From Vulcanococcus limneticus LL (GTDB taxonomy: Bacteria > Bacteroidota > Bacteroidia > UKL13-3): a stretch of DNA of 64,000 nucleotides. Location of the stretch: positions 13,334-77,333 of the forward strand of contig CALRIT020000010.1 of assembly GCA_943361925.1 (NCBI GenBank). The letters are read 5' to 3'. The translations under genes and the position numbers were made by a program. Positions 52,056 through 63,856 of the stretch are shown here, piece after piece. Below the pieces are notes generated by a model. The model had not been told where the DNA came from and did no database searches. It saw only the letters and a program-made list of their open reading frames with translations. How positions within the stretch are numbered: the stretch's first letter is position 1; each line of letters starts with the position of its first letter.

Positions 52056-52084
52056 TAGATTTGTAACAAATAAGTCGAAAAGTG

Positions 52085-52762
52085 ATGAAAAAACTAATAC
52101 TCATTATATTTTTAGGTCTAAGTCTTAACTCAGCATTTGCTCAGTTTGAATTGGTGCCTAAAGTTGCGAAAAATCAAGCAAGCAGTAATAAATTCCTAAT
52201 AGAAGCAGTTGCTCAATTTACCAATAATGGTGGTGATTCTTTATTCGAGTGGAACATCTTAGAAGTAAACATTCCTTCAGGTTGGACATTTGGTATGTGT
52301 GATCCTTACAACTGTTTAGATAATGTTGTTGAAGGTCGTAAAAGTGGTTTTACTTTAGGTAAAGGAAAAGGTGGTGAATTCAAAGGTGATTTCACTGCAA
52401 ACAGCATTCCTGGAAATGGTTTTGTTAAAGTTCATATTTATTCTAGAACAAACGCTTCTATTCAAGATACTTTGGCTTATTCAGTAAACGCATGGCCTGT
52501 AGGTGTAAGAGAAAATTCTAAAAGCAATTTTGATTTTAGTTTCTTCCCTAATCCTGCTAAAGAAAGATTGGTCATTAAGTACACTACTCGTGAACCAATT
52601 CAAATCAACATCTACAATATTTTAGGTGTTAAAGTTAAAACTATTACTCATTCAGGAAATGAAACTGAAATCAATATTGGTGATTTACAAAACGGAATAT
52701 ACTTCATCCGTTTCAAAGATGGTAACCAAACCATCTCTAAATCTTTCACCAAATCTGAATAA
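52085..52762 (+). CDS. Small secreted protein with a T9SS C-terminal sorting domain
   Basis: Signal peptide MKKLILIIFLGLSLNSAFAQ. C-terminal FFPNPAKERLVIKY...NIYNILGVKV...LQNGIYFIRF is a Por/T9SS CTD. Confidence 0.75.
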   Translation: MKKLILIIFLGLSLNSAFAQFELVPKVAKNQASSNKFLIEAVAQFTNNGGDSLFEWNILEVNIPSGWTFGMCDPYNCLDNVVEGRKSGFTLGKGKGGEFKGDFTANSIPGNGFVKVHIYSRTNASIQDTLAYSVNAWPVGVRENSKSNFDFSFFPNPAKERLVIKYTTREPIQINIYNILGVKVKTITHSGNETEINIGDLQNGIYFIRFKDGNQTISKSFTKSE

Positions 52763-52847: not shown

Positions 52848-53441
52848 ATGAAAAAGATACATCAATTGCTTCTTTTCATTTACTATTTAATTTGGGCAAT
52901 TTGCTTAGTATTTGCTTACGCTTATTTAACAGATAAATTTTATAGTATTGGACGATGGTTTGGGCCAATAGCAGGATTACTGACCATTTCAATCAGTTTA
53001 ATAACATTATTAACGTTAAGTTTCCTTTATATATTCAGAAAATCGAAAAGAGCTTTAAACGCAAAATTTATTCAATTAAGCCTAATTCCTTTTTTAGGAT
53101 TGATTCCTTTTTTTATTCTGAATTCAATACCAAATGAATTAGAAAATCAAGTCGTAAAAATTAAAGTAACTTATGTAGCATATAGTTGCGAATGCGCGAA
53201 CTGGAAAATAAAAACAATAAATGGAGAACCCTGCAAGGAGCCTAATTGTGAAGATATTTTTCTGGAAGCTTTACAGCCCAAAAATGAAATACAAGAAGAT
53301 GTATTTCAAAATGGAAAAACCATTGAATTAACAGGGAAATTTTACAAGAAAAAAGGCTTTCCAAAAGATTATCACCAATCAGAGCAACAGCCTCAAAAAG
53401 CTAGAATTTTTCAGTACAGTTCTTATAAAATTAGTAATTAA
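52848..53441 (+). CDS. Membrane protein with a Cys-containing C-terminal soluble domain, function unknown
   Basis: 197 aa. Three hydrophobic helices, then YVAYSCECANWKIKTINGEPCKEPNCEDIF. Confidence 0.5.
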   Translation: MKKIHQLLLFIYYLIWAICLVFAYAYLTDKFYSIGRWFGPIAGLLTISISLITLLTLSFLYIFRKSKRALNAKFIQLSLIPFLGLIPFFILNSIPNELENQVVKIKVTYVAYSCECANWKIKTINGEPCKEPNCEDIFLEALQPKNEIQEDVFQNGKTIELTGKFYKKKGFPKDYHQSEQQPQKARIFQYSSYKISN

Positions 53442-53517: not shown

Positions 53518-55020
53518 TTAAAACCTTACGCCACCACCAAAACTTACCATAAGTCGGTTGAAAGAATTCACAGCATTTTGATTAGCTCCATCATAAGGTG
53601 TATACAAGTCTTTTCCTCTTACCTGGTTCACACCTAAATCAAAGAAATAATCCTGGTTATAAATCCAGCCAAAACCTGCACTAATTAATGTCCTTTTTCC
53701 ATCCGCAGAAGAAATATAATCTTCTTTAAAAGGACTTCCTAGCAAGGCATATCCGGCCCTGAATCTTAGATCTTCATATTTAATTTCCAAACCGGTACGA
53801 ATGTTTGTTGATTTACCATACAAAGTTCTTACACGGCTATTTTCTTTATCGTACGAAAATCCTTCTGCACTTAATTTCCCTGTAGAATAATCTACTTGTT
53901 CGTAATCAACAGTTACCAATGCAAATTTGGCAATAGTTACAGCTCCCGAAACATTGTATCTCGATGGAGTTCTAAGTTGGTATTCAAAATAGTCTTCTCT
54001 ATCCTCTGCGGGTTCTGTAAACGAACGTCCGTCTGAATAAACCATGGTTAAATCATTTCTGTAATAATCAGTTAGATTTAATATCACAGCAGTATGGTAA
54101 CTTGCTCCCAATTTAAGGAAATCTAATGGGCGAATGATTGCACCAATTTTTGCTCCAACCCCTGATCCCTTTGTATTTACATATTGATTGATAATAGACG
54201 ATTTGTATACATTATTTGAAACGGTACTGCTAAGTAAATCTTCAGTCAGACTAATATTAGAAGTAAAATTAACATCCTGAAAAACCAGTGATGCGCCTAG
54301 ATAAACAAAATTACTTAAATTCATTCCACCTGAAACATACCATTCAGAAGCCCTTCCTCTCAATTTCATTTGCTGAAAATGGTTTACAAAGTAGTTTGTA
54401 TCACCTTGTAATTTCTGTATAGAAGCATAATTACTTCTACTTCCATTATTATCCATTAATCGAACACGCCAAGCTAATGCAGAAAGTGTATTGTCGTAAT
54501 CAGTACTTAAGAAGTTTGCAGAATCTCTACCCTGGGCTGACTGAGCTAAAAAATCTCCAACAGTTGTATTACTGTTTTTGCCTGAATACTCAATATTTTG
54601 CTGATAATCTGCCAAACGATTCACGCCAAATGCAAAACTATAACTAACTAAACCTTGTGTTGCGCTTTTGCCTTTATACTGATTAAGATTGGTTACCACT
54701 AAACCAAAATTTGGAATATTAAAACCCAATCTGTAATCACTTATTTCAGAACCACCATAAGATGTATTAGAAGAAAAAGAGTTGAATGAAACTGCAGCCA
54801 TAAACTCATTTTTTCTGTACAAACCTAGTCCGGCAGGGTTAATACTTGCAGATGACATATCAGCACCCACTGCACCCCATGCTCCTGCTAAACCCATTGT
54901 TCTTGCAGAACCCTGATAGTTTTGTCGGGAGAACCTGAAAACATCTTCATGGTATTGAGCCTGACTTGTACCGGCTAATACAAGTAGACTTATTCCTAAA
55001 ATTATTCTTTTTGCTAACAT
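53518..55020 (-). CDS. Outer-membrane beta-barrel, FadL/OMPP1/PorV-like (tentative)
   Basis: 500 aa. Signal peptide ending TSQAQ. N-terminal block SARTMGLAGAWGAVGADMSSASINPAGLGLY resembles the FadL/PorV-type hatch motif. C-terminal MVSFGGGVRF ends in Phe. It starts 12 nt after the upstream lipoprotein stop. Confidence 0.6.
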   Translation of the reverse strand: MLAKRIILGISLLVLAGTSQAQYHEDVFRFSRQNYQGSARTMGLAGAWGAVGADMSSASINPAGLGLYRKNEFMAAVSFNSFSSNTSYGGSEISDYRLGFNIPNFGLVVTNLNQYKGKSATQGLVSYSFAFGVNRLADYQQNIEYSGKNSNTTVGDFLAQSAQGRDSANFLSTDYDNTLSALAWRVRLMDNNGSRSNYASIQKLQGDTNYFVNHFQQMKLRGRASEWYVSGGMNLSNFVYLGASLVFQDVNFTSNISLTEDLLSSTVSNNVYKSSIINQYVNTKGSGVGAKIGAIIRPLDFLKLGASYHTAVILNLTDYYRNDLTMVYSDGRSFTEPAEDREDYFEYQLRTPSRYNVSGAVTIAKFALVTVDYEQVDYSTGKLSAEGFSYDKENSRVRTLYGKSTNIRTGLEIKYEDLRFRAGYALLGSPFKEDYISSADGKRTLISAGFGWIYNQDYFFDLGVNQVRGKDLYTPYDGANQNAVNSFNRLMVSFGGGVRF

Positions 55021-55032
55021 AGTAGTATTTAA

Positions 55033-56481
55033 TTAACGGGGTCTAGAAACCGGACCTGATGAACCTCTGCTTCCGCCACCTGATGAGCTACCCGAACTTC
55101 CTGATGAACCGCCACCACCCGATCTAGTTGGAGCTGGCGCAGGTGAAGGTGTGTAAGAAGGAGAACTATTACTTCTTGAAGGTGGATCAAAACTAGGTCT
55201 GCTTCTTGAAGGTGTATTATCTGATGGAGCGCTTGGAGCTGGCGCGCTACCTTGTGAACCACCACCATAATTTGAATTTCTTGGAGGAACATAATAGGTC
55301 CTGCCTTGAGGTGTAACTTGTAAATCTCCACCCGACCTGCTTGAACCTGCTGCAGGAGCTGCACTAGCCGGAGGAACGGTTCTGTTTCTAGGTGGAACAT
55401 AAGTTTGTGTACCACCCGGACCTTGAATTAAGTCTCCACCGGGTCTGGTTGTTGTTTGAGCCGGAGCTGCTGGAGCATTGTTTAAATCAGGTCTGATATT
55501 TCTATTGGGACCACTTCTCGATGGAACATCACCTGAAGCCTGAGAAGGTGCGTTTCTCATAGCCGGCGCAACTGGTCTTGATTGTTGTCCGCCTGTATTT
55601 ACACTACCCGGGCGAGAGCCTGATGAACCTCTTCCAATACCTTCACCTCTAGGACTAAATCTTGGAGCATTTTGAACGATATCCCTTCCGGAATTCCAAC
55701 CAGCTCCATTATTTCTCCAATGATTACGATTCCAACAATTATTGTAACCAAACCAAGGATTATATCCATAACCATATCCCCATGGACTGTAACCAAATCC
55801 ATAATTAAATGCAAATGGATCGTAGAAGTAAGGGTTATAAAATGGGTTCCAAGGATCATAACCCCAAGGATTATAAGCATACGGATTTCCCCAGCCCATT
55901 CCACCAAATCCCATGTTATAACCAAAGCCCATGTTCCATCCACCGCGTGAACCCCAACTAATTCCAATATTCCATCCCGGAGCCCAATTATAAAAACCCG
56001 GACGAACTATTGGAGAATACCAGGATGTCCAACCCCAATTTGGCGATAATGCATTAAAATATGGGTCGGTATAATAAAAAGATCTTTCAGTACCGAATCT
56101 TCTGGCATCGCGTTCCTCTTCTGTTTCTCTATTGAATTGATCATTTGAAACAGCTTGCTCATCATAATTCTGTATTGCAGTGCTGCCTCTTTGAGAATTC
56201 CATGCCTGATATGCCTGATTTGCTCTTTCTTCTTCAGTATAACTTGATTCGGAATTATTAGTATTTCTGGCTGGTTCATAGTTTGAACCACCGCCTTTAT
56301 GATCCTTTTGTTTATCGAAATTAACATCATCCAGAGTTTGAATTTTGCTTTCATCACTCTTTTTAGACCAGTAAACATCGTCTTCAGCTGCCCCAACATT
56401 GAATTGTTGCTGTACCGTACAGGAACTTAATCCCGTAATAACCAACGCACTGCCAAGTAATATTAAGTTTTTCATAAACAT
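55033..56481 (-). CDS. Lipoprotein with an aromatic/Gly/Asn-rich low-complexity core and a Pro/Ser/Gly/Arg-rich tail
   Basis: Start set at MFMKNLILLGSALVITGLSSC (lipobox), because the track start at 56634 overlaps proS. The core reads NWGWTSWYSP...GWNMGFGYNMGFGGMGWGNPYAYNPWGYDPWNPFYNPYFYDPFAFNYGFGYSPWGYGYGYNPWFGYNN. The tail ends GGGGSSGSSGSSSGGGSRGSSGPVSRPR. Confidence 0.7.
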   Translation of the reverse strand: MFMKNLILLGSALVITGLSSCTVQQQFNVGAAEDDVYWSKKSDESKIQTLDDVNFDKQKDHKGGGSNYEPARNTNNSESSYTEEERANQAYQAWNSQRGSTAIQNYDEQAVSNDQFNRETEEERDARRFGTERSFYYTDPYFNALSPNWGWTSWYSPIVRPGFYNWAPGWNIGISWGSRGGWNMGFGYNMGFGGMGWGNPYAYNPWGYDPWNPFYNPYFYDPFAFNYGFGYSPWGYGYGYNPWFGYNNCWNRNHWRNNGAGWNSGRDIVQNAPRFSPRGEGIGRGSSGSRPGSVNTGGQQSRPVAPAMRNAPSQASGDVPSRSGPNRNIRPDLNNAPAAPAQTTTRPGGDLIQGPGGTQTYVPPRNRTVPPASAAPAAGSSRSGGDLQVTPQGRTYYVPPRNSNYGGGSQGSAPAPSAPSDNTPSRSRPSFDPPSRSNSSPSYTPSPAPAPTRSGGGGSSGSSGSSSGGGSRGSSGPVSRPR

Positions 56482-56518
56482 GAGATTTGTTTGCTTATAC
56501 AAAGTAACAACTAAAAAG

Positions 56519-56526
56519 TATTTTTG
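56519..56526 (+). promoter_or_regulatory. -7 promoter box TATTTTTG for proS
   Basis: Exact TAnnTTTG match 42 nt upstream of the proS ATG at 56569. Confidence 0.45.
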
Positions 56527-56568: not shown

Positions 56569-58044
56569 ATGGAAATTAAGAAAGTAAAAAGAAGTGAAGA
56601 TTACAGTGCCTGGTACAATAATCTTGTGAAACATGCCGATTTAGCTGAACATTCGGCAGTAAAAGGCTGTATGGTTATAAAACCTTATGGATATGCCATT
56701 TGGGAAACAATGCAGGCAGAATTAGACAGACGATTCAAGGAAACAGGACACCAAAATGCATATTTCCCCTTATTCATTCCAAAAAGCTTTTTTAGTAAAG
56801 AAGCCAGCCATGTTGATGGATTTGCAAAAGAATGTGCAGTTGTAACTCATTATAGATTAAAAGTAGATGAGAATACCAGAGAAATTGTGGTTGATCCGGA
56901 TGCCAAACTAGATGAAGAACTAATTGTAAGACCTACCTCTGAAACCATTATCTGGAATACTTATAGAGATTGGATTCAAAGTTACCGTGATTTACCAATT
57001 CTTATTAACCAATGGGCGAATGTGGTAAGATGGGAAATGAGAACCCGATTGTTTTTAAGAACTGCTGAATTTTTATGGCAAGAAGGTCATACTGCTCATG
57101 CTACTGCTGAAGAAGCAATTGCAGAAACCAAACAAATGCTAGAAGTTTATGCTGATTTTGCAGAAAACATACTTGCTGTTCCGGTAATTAAAGGTGTAAA
57201 AACTCCAAATGAAAGATTTGCCGGAGCATTAGATACTTATTGCATTGAAGGTTTGATGCAAGATGGAAAAGCACTTCAAATGGGAACTTCACATTTCTTA
57301 GGTCAGAATTTTGCTAAAGCTTTTGATGTAAAATATGTAACCAAAGAAAATACAAAAGAATATGTTTGGGCAACTAGTTGGGGAGTTTCAACCAGGTTAA
57401 TGGGCGCTCTTATTATGAGTCATAGCGATGATGAAGGATTGGTTTTACCTCCAAGACTTGCTCCTATTCAAGTTGTAATCGTTCCAATTTTCAGAAAAGA
57501 AGCAGAACAATCTTTAGTTATGGAAAAAGCTGATGCCTATTTCGCTGCTTTAAAAGCTGCAGGTATCAGAGTTAAATTAGATGCCAGAGACAATCAATCT
57601 CCTGGATTTAAGTTTGCCGAATACGAATTAAAAGGAGTTCCCGTTCGAATTGCAATTGGACCAAGAGACGTTACTAACGGTACTGTGGAAGTTGCAAGGA
57701 GAGATACCAAAGAAAAACAGGTAATGTCTGAAACAGATTTAGTCCATAAAATCGAGCATTTATTAGAACAAATTCAGACTAATCTATATCAAAAAGCATT
57801 GGATTACAGAACTGAACATATCACTGCTGTAAATACTTGGGATGAATTCAAAGATGTTTTGGAAAACAAAACCGGTTTCGTTTCAGCGCATTGGGATGGT
57901 ACTTCGGAAACCGAACAAAAAATCAAAGAAGAAACAAAAGCAACAATCCGTTGTATTCCTTTAGATAATCATTTGGAAAACGGTATTTGTGTTTATTCAG
58001 GAAAACCTTCAACACAAAGAGTTTTGTTTGCTAAGGCTTATTAA
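56569..58044 (+). CDS. proS: Proline--tRNA ligase (archaeal/eukaryote-like class IIa type)
   Basis: 491 aa. [59 protein letters not shown]-type motif 2, [10 protein letters not shown], and a C-terminal Zn-binding-type domain ending AKAY. Confidence 0.95.
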
Positions 58045-58067: not shown

Positions 58068-58105
58068 TAAAAATGCCTGAACTATAAATCAGTTCAGGCA
58101 TTTTT
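58068..58105. terminator. Bidirectional terminator between proS and the RES toxin gene
   Basis: 13-bp stem aaatgcctgaact / agttcaggcattt with a 7-nt loop. The T-run overlaps the RES stop codon. Confidence 0.85.
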
Positions 58106-58562
58106 ATTTGAAAATTCTCTTATCAAAAGGGAATTTTTCTGATGAAAGAATTTTAACTTTTTTGAAATCTTTATGAAATGGATTAATGAGAATATTAAAG
58201 TCTCCTTTTGTCACTGCAGATGGCACTTCTAAAAGCAAATATTTATTCTGATTAATGAAATCATCACCAATCTTTGCGCATAAATTATTTGAAGGAAAAG
58301 CATTCCAATTTTCCGGTAAATCTATTGGGTCAATTTTCTTTTTACTCGATTTAGTCGGTAATAAAATTTCTAACATATAGAAATCATCAGGAAGAGTTGC
58401 TAAAGTTAAATGCACCACCAATTCAGCCATAGCTAAAGAACGATTAGAAGCTGTATAAATAATTTCTGTTCCTATGGAATTCCATCTGCCCCCAAATAAA
58501 GAAGCCCCTTTTCCCGAAAAATCATTCATGAAACATTCACGAACCAGTCTATAAACCTTCAT
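58104..58562 (-). CDS. RES-domain toxin (NAD+-degrading toxin family)
   Basis: 152 aa. GGRWNSIGTEIIYTASNRSLAMAELVVH (Arg and Glu) and LLLEVPSAV (Ser) give the R-E-S signature. NILINPFH. Confidence 0.85.
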   Translation of the reverse strand: MKVYRLVRECFMNDFSGKGASLFGGRWNSIGTEIIYTASNRSLAMAELVVHLTLATLPDDFYMLEILLPTKSSKKKIDPIDLPENWNAFPSNNLCAKIGDDFINQNKYLLLEVPSAVTKGDFNILINPFHKDFKKVKILSSEKFPFDKRIFK

Positions 58563-59063
58563 TTAAGCGAAAATTCCGTAGTTTATTCTATTTAATTCTG
58601 CCATGAGCAAACTCTTTCCATAGGAGTTAACCAGTAAACTTGAAGGCTTTTCATTGGCTAAAGCAAAATTTGGAGTTTCTAACCATAAGCCGAATTTTTC
58701 TGTAGTTCCAAAAACTTCTAAACCCAAATTATTTACCTCAGCTATTTCAAAAATTTTTTCTGATTGAAGTGGACCAAAATGACGGTTTTCTAATTTATAC
58801 CTTTGTAGTGATTTAGAAGATAAATCTAACAAATTGGCCCATGAAGCTTCTGGTAAAGGAGTTATTGATTTAATTAATTCAAACAAATTAAATGGAACCC
58901 CAAGTTTAATAGCTTTCATTACTAACATTTTATCAGAGAAAAACTCTGACCAACTAGGAGTTTTAGAATATCTAGCAACAGGTTCATTTACGAGGCATTC
59001 TTTCATAAATGTACCAAATTGTTCATTTAATTTTTTATTGAAAATAAATTGATCTTCTGACAT
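58563..59063 (-). CDS. Xre/MbcA/ParS-type antitoxin with a DUF2384 toxin-binding domain
   Basis: The C-terminal LEVFGTTEKFGLWLETPNFALANEKPSSLLVNSYGKSLLMAELNRINYGIFA matches DUF2384. Its stop abuts the RES ATG. The ATG at 59063 is preferred because the TTG at 59102 lies inside the upstream terminator and upstream of the -7 box. Confidence 0.8.
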   Translation of the reverse strand: MSEDQFIFNKKLNEQFGTFMKECLVNEPVARYSKTPSWSEFFSDKMLVMKAIKLGVPFNLFELIKSITPLPEASWANLLDLSSKSLQRYKLENRHFGPLQSEKIFEIAEVNNLGLEVFGTTEKFGLWLETPNFALANEKPSSLLVNSYGKSLLMAELNRINYGIFA

Positions 59064-59080
59064 ATTCGGAAAATTGTCTT

Positions 59081-59088
59081 CAAATTTA
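59081..59088 (-). promoter_or_regulatory. -7 promoter box (TAAATTTG) for the toxin-antitoxin pair
   Basis: Minus strand TAAATTTG lies 17 nt upstream of the ATG at 59063 and directly downstream of the terminator. Confidence 0.45.
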
Positions 59089-59100
59089 AGACTTTTTTCC

Positions 59101-59132
59101 AAAAAAAATGCCTTTCTCTTCAGAAAGGCATT
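59101..59132 (-). terminator. Rho-independent terminator after the 1248-aa gene
   Basis: aatgcctttct / cttc / agaaaggcatt. An A-run of 8 on the plus strand gives a U-run on the minus-strand transcript. Confidence 0.85.
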
Positions 59133-59153: not shown

Positions 59154-62100
59154 CTATTTAAAACCGATTTGCTTTCTATCTGCCTCTGCAACTTTAATAC
59201 AGAAATCTTTGAAAACAGTATAATCAGTTGTAGGAACAACATCCTTTTTCATTTTGATTTTACGAGTAACAGTAACTTTTCCTGGTGCAACTACAAAACT
59301 TAAACTATAATCATAGTTAGGACAAGTAAGCGTTACGTTTTTAGGAATCTCAGCCAAAACCTTTCCGGCAGGAATTTCTAAAGTTATAGTTTCTTTTAGC
59401 TCATCAGCACCATCAAATTCCCAAACATTAAATGGAAACTTACGCTCATCTGCAGATACAAAATCCAATCCACTGTAAGCATCAGCCCAAGGTAAGTTTA
59501 GAATTTTAATACCAATTACTTCTTTTAATTCATTACTGATTTTGTATTTATAAGTGTATTTAACAGTATCACCTAAAGTGACCAAATCCGACATAGTTAA
59601 GTTGATTAATTTTACTGGATTATTAAAATCTGATGAAATTGATTCAGTCATAGATTTTTCTTGCTTTTCTTTACCTATATCAGCATAATTACTTCTAAAT
59701 CCACTAGCATAACCACCCATTCTGATATTCTTTCTTTCTAAAATCATATCATTCATTTCGAATTTAACTTTGGTTTCTCTGAATATAGAATTTGAAACCC
59801 TGTTATTTGATTGCAACAAGATTAAATCTTTAGCAGTATTATCAGTTTTGGTTGGAATATTTAATGCCAATGAATTCAATAAATACGATGGTAAAGTACC
59901 AAACGATAATTTTGAATTAGTTAGTTCAACATAATACTCTTTTCCTCCTGCAAAAAATCGAGCAATACAGTGATTAAATCCAATAGTTGGCAATGTAAAG
60001 TCGAAATCACCATTGTCTCTTGTATCAACTAAAACCAGGTTCGATTTTAAACCCACTTCTTTACACATAGCAACAAATAATGTAGATAAATCTTTACAAT
60101 CTCCTAAACGAGTACTGATAGTTCTAGAAGCTGTTTGAGGAACGTGAGCACTATGTAAAAATGGAACATTACTATATCTGAAATTATCAGCAATATATTG
60201 GTAAATCAACTTACCTTTTTCGTACTCAGATAAGTTAGTTTTGTCTTTGAACAATTCAGCAACAGTTTCTTTTACTTCAAATTTTGCTTTTGCTTTTGTC
60301 GATGCTAAATCCGAATACCAATTGGCAACAAAGTTCCAATCTGGCATTGAACTTAACTCCAAGATTCCACCTACATCATCCAAAGGAGGCATATATGGTT
60401 CTGATTTAAATGCAGCCAAATCTTGTGTCGACCAGGTATACTTTTTCAAATCATCTAAATCTTCAATTTTCTCATCAACTTTAATATTTCTAACCTTGTA
60501 TTTAAAGCTGAAATCTTTAGGAGTAATGATGGTGTATTTGCAACTTTTTACAGGGAAGAAATAATTGAAGTTAAATTCATCCCAGAAATGAGAAGCCAAT
60601 TTTCCATGACCATAGTTTTCAATTCTATAAATTAAATGAATACCATCACCTTCTTCCAAATTAGGAAATACCATTTCATTGTGATTGGTTTCAGCTTTTA
60701 ATTTACTTCCATCTTTCTTTAATACTTCAACCTTTTCAACAATTAATCTTTGCCCATAACTATTGTATCCAACTGAATATTCTTTCCAACGATCGATTCC
60801 ACTTTTGTTGAAAATCTTCACAATCAATTCAACTTTTTCTTCTGAACTACCTTGTGCATATACAACTCTCTGTCTGTTATTTAACAAAATAATTGAATTG
60901 TCTTCAGGATAATCTTCTGCTTTTGGACCCGCTTTAAAAACCTTTACTGGATCAACACAATCAAAACCTTCAAACAAATCTTTTTTATTCTCAAGTTTTC
61001 TCAACTGCTTTCTAGCATCATAATTGCTTGGTTGGAAATAAATTGCATTTTGATAAGCCAATGACGCCTCTGCTACGTTTTTTCTGGCCTCTTGAATTTT
61101 ACCAATTTTATCCCAGTAATAACTATGATAAGGAGCCATATCTCTTGTTTTTTCCTGCCAGCTTAAAGCCAAATCATAAGCCTGTTGATCAAAATATAAT
61201 TCAGCCAAATCATTATAATAACCAATAGCATAAGGAAAATTATCGACGCGTTTCAAATAAAGATTTAATCCATCCTGAACTTTACCTAATTTGAAATAGT
61301 TATTTGCTACACTTGTTATTACACCATCATTCAAATTATTCTTAAGATAATTTAACAAAATAGCGTTTGCAGCTGAGAGATTTTTCTTTGTATTTTGAAC
61401 AATATTATACTGCAACATCATTAAGTTATAATCATCCGGATACTTCGCATATAATTCATTGGCATAACGAATTAATTCTTCATAATTTTTACGATTTGCA
61501 AGTAACTCCAAACGAATCATTTCGATATATTTAGACTTACCGTACAAGTTTTCCATTTGATTAACTAACTTTTCTTCCTCATCATAATTTTCCTTATTCT
61601 CTTCTTCAGAAATTCTTAACCTTAAAGCGTAAATGTTTTCAGGAAACTCAGTTTTAATTTTCTCTTGAGTTTTAGTTAAATCAGTATAATTTTTATCTCT
61701 TGAATAAGCTTCAATTTGTTTAATACCAACCAAGCAGTTTTGCGGCGCCAGTTTACTTGACATTTGCATAGCTTTTCTTGATTCGTAAGGTTTATCATTC
61801 CTTAAATAAGTTTCTGCTAACAATAAATAGTTCAATAAATCAGGTTTTGTTTTTACTTGATCTTCAAAGAATTTTTCAGCAAAAAATGGAAATGTTTTAA
61901 CTGCATACTCACTTGCTTTTGTATATGCCTGATTATCGTTTGTGCTGGTGATTCCTGGGATTGGATTGGCCTTATCATCACAAATACGAAGTAAGAAATT
62001 TGCGTTCCCAACTTCACTTTCACCAATTTGAACTAAAATTCTGTTGAAACCTTTATTTAATTTGATACCTGATGCATAAACATCCAAATCACAATTACGC

Positions 62101-62900
62101 TCTTCTTCTACTTCAGTAACCAATTTATCATTAACCCAAATTTTCATGGAACCTGAACTACCTGAAAACAAAAATGCTTCCATATCGGCAGGAGAATTTA
62201 CCCAAGTTTGAGCAAACATGATACTGTTATCATGCTCAAAATGATAAGCAAAATCGGTCCATTTATCATTTCTGATATGTTTAACTTTAAACCATTTTAC
62301 TTTTGCACCGGCAAAGTTTACAAATTCTTCATTGGCACCTGACTTTTCTAAAGCGCCCCAGTTTTTATCATATCCACTAGCAGAAATATTATCGAAAGTT
62401 CCTAACATCTGCCAATTTTCAATGTTTCCAATTTTGGCAAATTCTTCAAGGGATTTAGCAACTTTATTGGAAGACTGATAATGTTTAGCTAGCATATAAT
62501 GCGCCATAGCTTTAATAGTTCCATTTGCTCTAGAATCAGCAATTACAGCGTTTAAGAACTTTAACTTTGATTCATCTTTCTTTCCGTATCCATCAAAAAT
62601 AATTCCGTTTGTCCACAAGGCATATACATAAGGATATGGATCAGGAGCAACAGCATAAAACTTTTGGAATGCATTAAATGCTTCATCATAATTTTCATTT
62701 TGAGCATAACATAATGCCAATCCCAATTGAGCTTCATTCATTAAATTGGGTGACTTTGCAGCTTCCTTAAAGCCATCAATAGCATCTAAAATATTGTTTG
62801 ATTTAAAATCCTCCCATTGTTTATTTAAGTTTTGGGAGTAGCCACTTTTACTTGCAAATAGTGTAAGCAGTAAAATGATGAGGATGTTTACTTTTTTCAT
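59154..62900 (-). CDS. Large secreted TPR-repeat / beta-sandwich / DUF3857-transglutaminase-like protein
   Basis: 1248 aa. Signal peptide MKKVNILIILLLTLFASKSGYSQ and TPR-like helical repeats in two blocks. The transglutaminase-core Cys context is RLGDCKDLSTLFVAMCKEVGLKSNLVLV. Confidence 0.75.
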   Translation of the reverse strand: MKKVNILIILLLTLFASKSGYSQNLNKQWEDFKSNNILDAIDGFKEAAKSPNLMNEAQLGLALCYAQNENYDEAFNAFQKFYAVAPDPYPYVYALWTNGIIFDGYGKKDESKLKFLNAVIADSRANGTIKAMAHYMLAKHYQSSNKVAKSLEEFAKIGNIENWQMLGTFDNISASGYDKNWGALEKSGANEEFVNFAGAKVKWFKVKHIRNDKWTDFAYHFEHDNSIMFAQTWVNSPADMEAFLFSGSSGSMKIWVNDKLVTEVEEERNCDLDVYASGIKLNKGFNRILVQIGESEVGNANFLLRICDDKANPIPGITSTNDNQAYTKASEYAVKTFPFFAEKFFEDQVKTKPDLLNYLLLAETYLRNDKPYESRKAMQMSSKLAPQNCLVGIKQIEAYSRDKNYTDLTKTQEKIKTEFPENIYALRLRISEEENKENYDEEEKLVNQMENLYGKSKYIEMIRLELLANRKNYEELIRYANELYAKYPDDYNLMMLQYNIVQNTKKNLSAANAILLNYLKNNLNDGVITSVANNYFKLGKVQDGLNLYLKRVDNFPYAIGYYNDLAELYFDQQAYDLALSWQEKTRDMAPYHSYYWDKIGKIQEARKNVAEASLAYQNAIYFQPSNYDARKQLRKLENKKDLFEGFDCVDPVKVFKAGPKAEDYPEDNSIILLNNRQRVVYAQGSSEEKVELIVKIFNKSGIDRWKEYSVGYNSYGQRLIVEKVEVLKKDGSKLKAETNHNEMVFPNLEEGDGIHLIYRIENYGHGKLASHFWDEFNFNYFFPVKSCKYTIITPKDFSFKYKVRNIKVDEKIEDLDDLKKYTWSTQDLAAFKSEPYMPPLDDVGGILELSSMPDWNFVANWYSDLASTKAKAKFEVKETVAELFKDKTNLSEYEKGKLIYQYIADNFRYSNVPFLHSAHVPQTASRTISTRLGDCKDLSTLFVAMCKEVGLKSNLVLVDTRDNGDFDFTLPTIGFNHCIARFFAGGKEYYVELTNSKLSFGTLPSYLLNSLALNIPTKTDNTAKDLILLQSNNRVSNSIFRETKVKFEMNDMILERKNIRMGGYASGFRSNYADIGKEKQEKSMTESISSDFNNPVKLINLTMSDLVTLGDTVKYTYKYKISNELKEVIGIKILNLPWADAYSGLDFVSADERKFPFNVWEFDGADELKETITLEIPAGKVLAEIPKNVTLTCPNYDYSLSFVVAPGKVTVTRKIKMKKDVVPTTDYTVFKDFCIKVAEADRKQIGFK

Positions 62901-63169: not shown

Positions 63170-63856
63170 ATGGAAAACAATTTCATTGAAATAAAAAAAA
63201 CACTCTTACAAAAATCATCGGTAAAACAATTAGTGTTTAGACAAACCAAACAGGTTTTTGCAGAACTTAAAGAAGTGGTAAAAAAAATCTGTTTTGAATT
63301 ATCAAACGAGATTTATGCAGAAGACCCAAATGTTGAAGTAAAATTTTATGACAAATCAGAATTTGAATTCCATTTAAAATTTTCTGGAGACACCTTAGTT
63401 TTTATGATGCACACCAATGTTTTCGATTTTGAATCAAACCATTTCATACACCAAAGTGCTTTTGTAAAGGAGGACATATTAAGAGAGTATTGTGGTATGA
63501 TTCAGATGTATAATTTTCTTGCTGATTCCATAAAATACAACCGTGAAGGAGATATGGGTTATTTGGTTGGAAGGTTATTTGTAAACAAAGACCGTCACTT
63601 TTTTATAGAAGGGAAAAGACCAATTTCTTTCTTATTTAACGATATCAGTAAAAATCAAATCAGTAATGAAAGTCTGGCTCAAGTTGTTGCTGAAGCGATG
63701 AAATTTTGTTTAAACTTCGATTTAATGGCTCCACCTCTTGAAGCAATCAACTTGCTTACAATTGAACAAAAAAACTACATGAGTTTTAGTAGTGGAATTC
63801 CAACTTCTAAAAGGTTAGGTTTTAGAATGGAAAAAGATGAAAGTGGAGATAAATAA
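63170..63856 (+). CDS. Hypothetical cytoplasmic protein
   Basis: 228-aa ORF with no signal peptide and no recognised motif. Confidence 0.5.
   Translation: MENNFIEIKKTLLQKSSVKQLVFRQTKQVFAELKEVVKKICFELSNEIYAEDPNVEVKFYDKSEFEFHLKFSGDTLVFMMHTNVFDFESNHFIHQSAFVKEDILREYCGMIQMYNFLADSIKYNREGDMGYLVGRLFVNKDRHFFIEGKRPISFLFNDISKNQISNESLAQVVAEAMKFCLNFDLMAPPLEAINLLTIEQKNYMSFSSGIPTSKRLGFRMEKDESGDK

Follow-up and report, generated by a model that had tools for sequence, protein, structure and literature searches.

We found that a lipoprotein gene and a barrel gene form a two-gene operon that is conserved across Bacteroidota and encodes an outer-membrane module. The operon was analyzed in a 64,000-nt stretch of DNA from Vulcanococcus limneticus LL (assembly GCA_943361925.1, contig CALRIT020000010.1, positions 13,334 to 77,333 of the forward strand); this whole stretch is called the window, and gene coordinates and strands refer to it. 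A preliminary description of the same DNA had reported the two genes, their coordinates, and a string of aromatic residues in the lipoprotein, all of which were confirmed, the string verbatim; both genes lie on the minus strand. Our preferred reading, put forward tentatively and at somewhat less than an even chance, is that the pair would form a barrel-docked, self-associating lipoprotein tether or mesh under the outer membrane.

The lipoprotein and barrel genes form one conserved operon

In the window, the start codon of the barrel gene lies exactly 12 nt past the stop codon of the lipoprotein gene, and no minus-strand terminator-like site was found between the two genes. In loci from several orders, the lipoprotein gene was followed downstream by the barrel gene in 41 of 41 cases, and the gap was 12 to 57 nt in all 35 loci measured. 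The co-transcription proposed in the preliminary description is therefore upheld as that of one conserved operon.

The constant neighbor of the pair is a divergent gene for prolyl-tRNA synthetase (proS). It was found in 40 of the 41 loci, which are all the loci with enough upstream sequence; in the sole exception (L026), the contig ends just before proS. All 28 loci from species-representative genomes (L001 to L028; metagenome-assembled genomes of freshwater and soil Bacteroidia) carry the triad, L026 lacking only the cut-off proS. Two distant lipoprotein homologues (P0023 and P0028; 28% identical) sit in the same triad with different other flanks, and the same gene context was found for four further family representatives from a profile search. 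Starting from barrel homologues, we found the triad in Rufibacter sp. LB8, Sunxiuqinia elliptica, Ancylomarina longa, a Prevotellaceae metagenome-assembled genome, and one further genome. In each of them a lipoprotein without a Pfam match lies between proS and the barrel gene, and the four of these lipoproteins that were translated have a DD[IV]Y[FY] motif, an aromatic block, and a Ser/Arg-rich tail ending in Arg (or RGRN).

Every lineage sampled had the pair, with gut-associated, marine, soil, and freshwater representatives among them, while the flanks other than proS were shuffled between lineages. The lipoprotein homologues are thus conserved and always adjoin the barrel gene, and the synteny across Bacteroidota on which the preliminary description had turned was found in all 41 loci. 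Independence of the pair from proS, on which it had also turned, was not found: the pair never occurred away from proS (40 of 40 loci).

The lipoprotein belongs to an undescribed family under strong purifying selection

The lipoprotein begins with MFMKNLILLGSALVITGLSSC and has the lipobox L-S-S-C with Cys21, followed by TVQQQF; its homologues mostly start at the second Met (MKN...). Three blocks of very different composition follow. Residues 22 to 130 are rich in Glu, Gln, Asn, and Asp and carry a net charge of -9. Aromatic residues (Trp, Tyr, and Phe) make up 34% of residues 136 to 262, and together with Gly, Asn, and Pro they account for 76% of this segment and for 82% of residues 178 to 262. 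The tail (residues 263 to 482; 220 aa) contains 19% Ser, 16% Gly, 16% Pro, and 10% Arg, with a net charge of +15. The densest 85-aa segment of the lipoprotein is 37.6% aromatic, compared with 24.7% in the runner-up when all 67 open frames in the window that encode 100 aa or more are ranked.

The local guanine-plus-cytosine content at the lipoprotein gene is 41%, compared with about 33% elsewhere in the window. Four open reading frames (ORFs) with odd, repetitive translations overlap the gene in other frames (55029..55415, 55599..55967, and 56007..56399 on the minus strand and 55672..55950 on the plus strand). These frames look like side effects of biased codon composition.

The lipoprotein gene itself is real and under strong purifying selection, since the ratio of nonsynonymous to synonymous substitution rates (dN/dS) was 0.05 to 0.06 against three close relatives and 0.03 to 0.14 in each of the three blocks. 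The dN/dS of the barrel gene against the same relatives was 0.02 to 0.04. In addition, 29 homologues could be aligned from end to end and share invariant positions. Cys21 is nearly invariant in the full alignment and invariant in its closer subset, and P481 and R482 are invariant.

We found no match for the lipoprotein in Pfam, NCBIfam, or the PDB; a lipoprotein profile run against the PDB gave only noise (for example, antibody chains), and Pfam had no match for 26 relatives either. A search with an N-terminal profile returned 272 cluster representatives at E <= 1e-3, and among the matches listed, 150 of 150 lay at the N terminus of the matched protein. The source names that were recovered for the family all read "hypothetical protein." The lipoprotein family is undescribed, as the preliminary description had supposed.

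The architecture of the family was counted in 117 full-length representatives with pairwise identities of at most 50%, a lipobox of the pattern [LVI][ASTVI][GAS]C being found in 117 of 133 full-length members. A [DE]Dx[YFW] motif is present in 116 of the 117, at a median position of +12 from the Cys. In 113, the six positions that follow the Cys (+1 to +6) are free of Asp and Glu. The N-terminal block carries a net negative charge in 108 (median, -8) and the tail a net positive one in 116 (median, +18), and the aromatic maximum per 80-residue segment ranges from 0.30 to 0.49. The family tail is 57% Ser, Gly, Pro, Thr, and Asn and 13% Arg and Lys; its final residue is Arg in 103 representatives, with an RPR ending in 41. 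The shared architecture begins with the lipobox Cys and continues with DDxY[WFY]S some 12 residues further on, an acidic block, an aromatic-Gly-Asn block, and a basic tail ending in Arg.

Pooled across the family, the aromatic block contains 18% Tyr, 17.6% Gly, and 12.9% Asn. Aromatic residues make up 32 to 35% of the block and are spaced more evenly than in shuffled sequences in 129 of 132 members (median z = -1.67), and 114 of 132 show an excess of the turn motif [ND]P[WYF]. In the window lipoprotein, the block is 34 to 35% aromatic with a spacing z of -1.5, and [ND]P[WYF] occurs 8 times against 0.6 expected. Composition and patterning of the lipoprotein are under selection; such compositional selection has been described for sticker-and-spacer low-complexity domains. 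The prion-like character proposed in the preliminary description holds to the extent that the composition of the aromatic block and its even aromatic spacing are typical of prion-like, phase-separating domains.

AlphaFold2 modeling of the lipoprotein alone (26 homologues) gave a mean predicted local distance difference test (pLDDT) score of 46.9 and a predicted template modeling (pTM) score of 0.20, and the protein is predicted to be almost wholly disordered. The local elements were low-confidence helices at residues 83 to 97 and 115 to 128, a beta-hairpin at residues 169 to 189 (GWNIGISWGSRGGWNMGFGYN; pLDDT, about 72), and small hairpins at the RPGGDL..G..YVPP repeats (pLDDT, 73 to 81).

Proline makes up 10.2% of the lipoprotein and 1.4% of the barrel. 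A classical amyloid core is made less likely by this proline content and by the numerous [ND]P[WYF] turns. We also noted that in all lineages sampled the lipoprotein gene stands head-to-head with proS, which encodes the synthetase for proline. The proline content beside proS may be a coincidence, since the tails in other orders are rich in Ser, Arg, and Thr rather than in Pro.

The barrel is a distinct subfamily of the FadL superfamily

The barrel matched Pfam PF03349 (Toluene_X; OMPP1/FadL/TodX) over residues 242 to 471 with 44.6 bits (gathering score, 29.7; E = 8.9e-12) and had no other Pfam hit. NCBIfam gave no hit for the window barrel at E <= 1, and a search of PDB sequences with the single barrel sequence found nothing. 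Its AlphaFold2 model (42 homologues; pLDDT, 89.3; pTM, 0.83) contains 14 to 16 strand segments in the DSSP string, and the barrel has long extracellular loops. In Foldseek searches with this model, the matches to Escherichia coli FadL, Pseudomonas aeruginosa FadL, and TodX had a probability of 1.0 and template modeling (TM) scores of 0.5 to 0.67. The top match was E. coli FadL (TM, 0.57 to 0.59 normalized to the query and 0.66 to 0.67 normalized to the target). TbuX, CymD, and BamG of three Bacteroidota beta-barrel assembly machinery (BAM) complexes were also listed (BamG TM, 0.52 and 0.63 to 0.65). The TM score to PorV (8gl6_F) was only 0.32. When a profile of the barrel family was run against PDB sequences, TbuX, P. 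aeruginosa FadL, and CymD matched, and BamG chains and PorV were not matched at E <= 1.

With curated family models, barrel relatives stayed far under the cut-offs. They scored 33 to 45 bits against the PorV/PorQ models (cut-off, 90), in matches that include the N-terminal motif, 14 to 25 bits against PorV2 (cut-off, 325), and at most 37.6 bits against the BamG equivalog (cut-off, 250). Only 1 of 42 relatives gave a match to PRK10716, the NCBIfam model of E. coli-type FadL, with E = 5.1e-07. Because the barrel is FadL-type by Pfam and fold and yet failed the curated PorV, PorQ, BamG, and FadL models, it is a distinct subfamily, of about 500 residues, of the FadL superfamily. A search with one member gave 3,066 matches at E <= 1e-20, an upper bound on the size of the subfamily that may include other FadL-superfamily barrels. 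The "FadL/PorV-type" label of the preliminary description is correct in its FadL part, by Pfam and fold, but its PorV part does not stand, given the low TM score and scores far under the cut-off.

The N-terminal motif of the barrel is a feature of the FadL superfamily. In 42 aligned sequences, Q22 (the mature N terminus), N61, and P62 are invariant and D26, R29, S31, and A63 nearly so (A63 in at least 90%). The N-terminal tail has the consensus Q-x-x-[ED]-D-x-[FL]-R-[YF]-S, and the model places helical elements of the hatch at residues 25 to 67. From the mature N terminus to the NPA motif there are 39 residues, compared with 32 in E. coli FadL by the numbering in PDB entry titles, so that the tail is about 6 to 7 residues longer. 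FadL-type channels take up hydrophobic substrates by lateral diffusion, and the barrel may do the same.

It is possible that there is no physical partnership between the two proteins, and that an ordinary FadL-type importer, bringing in long-chain fatty acids or different hydrophobic compounds, and an independent envelope lipoprotein have simply retained an ancient gene order near proS. The Toluene_X match, the intact NPA hatch, and the family-profile matches to the transporters TbuX, P. aeruginosa FadL, and CymD rather than to BamG or PorV are consistent with this explanation, and proS and often a 228-aa gene are likewise conserved neighbors with no obvious functional tie. However, order, orientation, and the 12- to 57-nt gaps are kept across orders while the flanks except proS are shuffled, and both probable counterparts in Flavobacterium johnsoniae rise together on TamL depletion (see below). 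We regard it as a serious but unlikely alternative.

The preliminary description had compared the barrel with the exporters FapF and CsgG, which would make it a dedicated secretion channel for a self-assembling amyloid or hydrogel subunit. The prion-like aromatic/Gly/Asn composition of the lipoprotein and the tight gene linkage fit such a system. On the other hand, the lumen of this FadL-fold barrel is plugged by a conserved hatch that includes the NPA motif. No amyloid exporter occurs among the 50 fold matches listed, the supposed substrate is a lipid-anchored lipoprotein without an export signal, and its proline and frequent turns point away from amyloid. The analogy was therefore dropped: an exported amyloid is not what the lipoprotein looks like, and amyloid export is very improbable. 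The broader idea of an uncharacterised envelope module with a partner prone to self-association stands, but the amyloid exporter that was attached to it does not.

Probable counterparts in F. johnsoniae and related systems

In F. johnsoniae, Fjoh_4939 is proS (proline-tRNA ligase), Fjoh_4940 is a lipoprotein with signal peptide II, and Fjoh_4941 is a FadL-family barrel (PMC12045153 and its preprint). This is the triad of the window, down to a lipoprotein without an export signal, and Fjoh_4940 and Fjoh_4941 are probable counterparts of the window pair. Fjoh_4940 was classed as lacking an export signal and facing the periplasm (PMC12045153). Mass spectrometry detected both proteins in membrane fractions (mean spectral counts, about 46 for Fjoh_4940 and 19 for Fjoh_4941), and the probable counterparts are abundant in the sole proteome that reports them (PMC12045153). 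Fjoh_4941 was also reported in vesicles, and Fjoh_4940 was not (PMC12045153). The preliminary description had pointed to outer-membrane and vesicle proteomes, where the probable counterparts of both proteins were indeed seen in membrane fractions and that of the barrel in outer-membrane vesicles. Of the adjacency of the two genes, the authors say only that it "might indicate a functional link" (PMC12045153).

When TamL was depleted, Fjoh_4940 increased 2.6-fold and Fjoh_4941 increased 5.6-fold (PMC12045153). This induction would fit a helper in outer-membrane biogenesis or stress, in which the disordered Tyr/Gly/Asn-rich block offers a holdase-like surface for unfolded barrels or lipids. The extracellular loop EL3 of Bacteroidota BamA is disordered, has 38 to 39 residues with 12 to 13 Tyr, is enriched in Gly and Asn in 861 homologues, and has an unexplained role (PMC12578637). 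Its composition parallels that of the aromatic block of the lipoprotein. As support for a helper role, the EL3 resemblance and the pooled Tyr, Gly, and Asn contents given above are compositional only; moreover, the loop lies outside the cell and the predicted place of the lipoprotein is the periplasm, and the reported copurification partners of BamA do not include the pair. We consider such a role quite improbable.

The closest precedent for a barrel paired with a lipoprotein is found in the Bacteroidota BAM complexes, in which the conserved N terminus and lipid anchor of BamH (DUF4270) are bound by the FadL-like BamG (PMC12578637, PMC12611786) and the genes for BamG2 and BamH2 form an operon (PMC12578637). 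By analogy with BamG/BamH, the N terminus of the lipoprotein could be wedged in the lateral opening of the barrel and the chain flipped to the cell surface, where it could form an adhesive or gel-like coat and bind polyanions through its Arg-rich tail. The BamG-BamH pair and the BamG2-BamH2 operon (PMC12578637), the structural closeness of the barrel to BamG, which equals that to FadL, the conserved and longer barrel N-terminal tail, and the invariant DD motif of the lipoprotein all speak for such a display. Against it, 113 of 117 family members have no acidic residue at +1 to +6, the F. johnsoniae counterpart was classed as lacking an export signal, the lipoprotein has no DUF4270 match, and the barrel lies far under the BamG cut-off. 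Surface exposure, to which the export proposed in the preliminary description would lead, is not borne out, since a lipid anchor without the Bacteroidota export signal predicts a protein facing the periplasm (PMC12045153). We rate surface display as rather unlikely.

Another FadL-family barrel of this phylum is the receptor of the BSAP-1 toxin in Bacteroides fragilis (locus BF9343_1563/BF638R_1644-1646), which is needed for gut colonization (PMC4999547, PMC12853789). A gene for an exported protein lies just upstream of the receptor gene, and the 3' region varies between strains (PMC4999547, PMC12853789). A search with the Prevotellaceae barrel gave no Bacteroides entry among the 120 matches listed, and the link to the BSAP-1 receptor stays a candidate.

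Proposed function of the pair

The reading that we prefer, a tether or mesh docked on the barrel, would work as follows. Lacking a lipoprotein export signal, the lipoprotein would stay at the periplasmic face of the outer membrane. Its conserved head would dock onto the partner barrel, much as BamG and BamG2 bind the N terminus of their partners. The aromatic block and the Arg-rich tail could then serve as multivalent stickers, making cation-pi and charge contacts with one another, with the acidic heads of neighboring molecules, or with the cell wall. The outcome would be a tether or mesh beneath the outer membrane that is organized around the barrel and that might also receive hydrophobic molecules admitted by the FadL-type channel.

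Several points weigh against this proposal. The basis for a physical complex of barrel and lipoprotein is indirect, and the composition of the lipoprotein is the only ground for its presumed self-association. The missing canonical export signal is likewise the sole ground for a periplasmic topology, and an export signal of an unusual, distal kind might reside in the invariant DD motif near +12. The lipoprotein has no known domain for binding peptidoglycan or lipid. The tether or mesh does not explain the constant linkage to proS, and identical gene order in the triad is the single basis for treating Fjoh_4940 and Fjoh_4941 as orthologues of the window pair.

A further step would be a condensate or gel layer of the lipoprotein beneath the outer membrane across Bacteroidota, nucleated on a dedicated FadL-like barrel. 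We think this unlikely overall. If true, the layer would be a new envelope element, either a noncovalent counterpart of the tethers between outer membrane and cell wall or a periplasmic hydrophobic relay.

Features of the locus and neighboring genes

The features of the operon are listed in Table 1.

Table 1. Positions of the operon, its parts, and its constant neighbor in the window
Feature	Position	Strand	Description or basis
proS (prolyl-tRNA synthetase)	56569..58044	+	Constant divergent neighbor
Conserved 30-nt element CAAAAATACTTTTTAGTTGTTACTTTGTAT, between proS and lipoprotein gene	56497..56526	-	Locus comparison
Lipoprotein gene	55033..56481	-	482 aa; undescribed family, predicted disordered
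Signal peptide II and lipobox LSSC, Cys21 predicted lipidated residue	56419..56481	-	Read from sequence
DDVYWS motif, residues 34-39, candidate docking motif	56365..56382	-	D34 and D35 invariant in alignment
Acidic Asn/Glu/Gln-rich block, residues 22-122	56116..56418	-	Composition
Conserved core RDARRFG...GWNIGISWGS (residues 124-178), then Tyr/Trp/Phe-Gly-Asn-Pro low-complexity block to residue 262	55696..56115	-	Alignment, composition
Basic Ser/Gly/Pro/Arg tail, residues 263-482, ending ...SRPR (invariant)	55036..55695	-	Composition, alignment
Two RPGGDL..G..YVPP repeats in tail	55390..55446 and 55282..55338	-	Sequence
Intergenic spacer between lipoprotein and barrel genes	55021..55032	-	12 nt
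Barrel gene	53518..55020	-	500 aa; FadL-superfamily outer-membrane barrel, distinct subfamily
Signal peptide I (residues 1-21), Gln22, N-terminal tail QYHEDVFRFS, hatch	54817..55020	-	42-sequence alignment
NPA motif N61-P62-A63	54832..54840	-	42-sequence alignment

The 30-nt element is nearly invariant in L001 to L028 and in two further loci (L031 and L032), where the surrounding intergenic DNA is variable, and it is kept even where the lipoprotein is only about 28 to 45% identical. It is absent in L029 and L033 to L035 and is unique in the window. The reverse complement holds TATTTTTG, a perfect Bacteroidetes-type -7 box pointing to proS, and a second conserved box, TTTTGGAATAGTATTTG, lies nearer proS in relatives. 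The element is a candidate shared promoter or operator. A scan for generic sigma-70 promoters told little, giving 10 sites where 13.5 were expected, and an Rfam scan of the whole window gave no family match.

Beyond proS, the window carries a RES/Xre toxin-antitoxin pair (58104..59102), a 1,248-aa TPR/DUF3857/transglutaminase protein (59154..62900), and a 228-aa ORF without a Pfam match (63170..63856) that is 41% identical to the gene directly following proS in many other loci. Here and in the closest relatives of the window, proS and the 228-aa ORF are separated by some 5 kb with genes on the opposite strand; this stretch looks like a lineage-specific insertion.

On the other side, a 226-aa secreted protein with a type IX secretion system (T9SS) C-terminal sorting domain is encoded convergently to the barrel gene (52082..52762, plus strand). 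A gene of this kind occupies that position in 19 of the 28 species-representative loci (L001 to L028) and in none of the distant loci tested. A link of the pair to T9SS through this neighbor was rejected, as the neighbor is conserved in the close clade only. Between it and the barrel gene lies a gene for a predicted membrane protein of 197 aa (52848..53441, plus strand), which has no Pfam match and was found only in L001 to L003.

Significance

Bacteroidota build their envelopes unlike the E. coli model, and recent work has shown that lipoproteins there have gained FadL-like barrels as recruited partners, as in BamG/BamH. The pair is a further uncharacterised barrel-plus-lipoprotein module of this phylum. 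The lipoprotein would be a rare case of a conserved, compositionally selected disordered envelope protein in bacteria that follows the sequence grammar of phase-separating domains from eukaryotes. A role in tethering or organizing the outer membrane, if it has one, would matter for how vesicles form, for the integrity of the envelope, and for how hydrophobic nutrients are taken up in a major phylum.

Comparison with known systems

CsgG and FapF were rejected as families for the barrel: neither is named among the 50 fold matches listed, Pfam gave only Toluene_X, and the would-be subunit is a lipoprotein. PorV and PorQ, the shuttle barrels of T9SS, belong to the same superfamily, and barrel relatives gave weak subthreshold hits to their models. 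Membership was rejected from these scores and the TM score of 0.32, and the window barrel itself had no hit.

The BamG-BamH pair is similar in that a FadL-like barrel is coupled to a partner lipoprotein, in an operon in the case of BamG2/BamH2, and in that the fold similarity of our barrel to BamG is about equal to that to FadL. BamG extends its N terminus by about 10 to 12 residues through the lateral opening; the tail of the window barrel is conserved and about 7 residues longer than that of FadL. However, the window barrel had no hit to the BamG model, and its relatives lie far under the cut-off, so BamG membership was rejected. BamH membership was rejected as well, since neither the window lipoprotein nor 26 relatives matched DUF4270 and the prediction for the lipoprotein is disorder, not a folded arch. 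The lipoprotein also lacks a surface-export signal, which in surface-exposed Bacteroidota lipoproteins consists of at least 2 acidic residues just after the Cys.

With the FadL/OMPP1/TodX channels, the barrel shares a Pfam match above the gathering score, the fold, and the N-terminal hatch with the NPA motif. It differs in being about 70 residues longer, with about 12 to 14% identity to solved members, in falling under the curated FadL-model cut-off, in its conserved, longer N-terminal tail, and in always being encoded behind a disordered lipoprotein.

Prion-like and RGG-type phase-separating domains follow the sticker-and-spacer grammar of the FUS family. The lipoprotein resembles them in combining evenly spaced aromatics in a Gly/Asn/Ser-rich context with an Arg-rich region in one chain. 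It differs in being bacterial, lipid anchored, located in the envelope, and Trp-rich, with [ND]P[WYF] turns and no RNA context. What is new here is a barrel subfamily of a known superfamily, together with a lipoprotein family that is itself undescribed.

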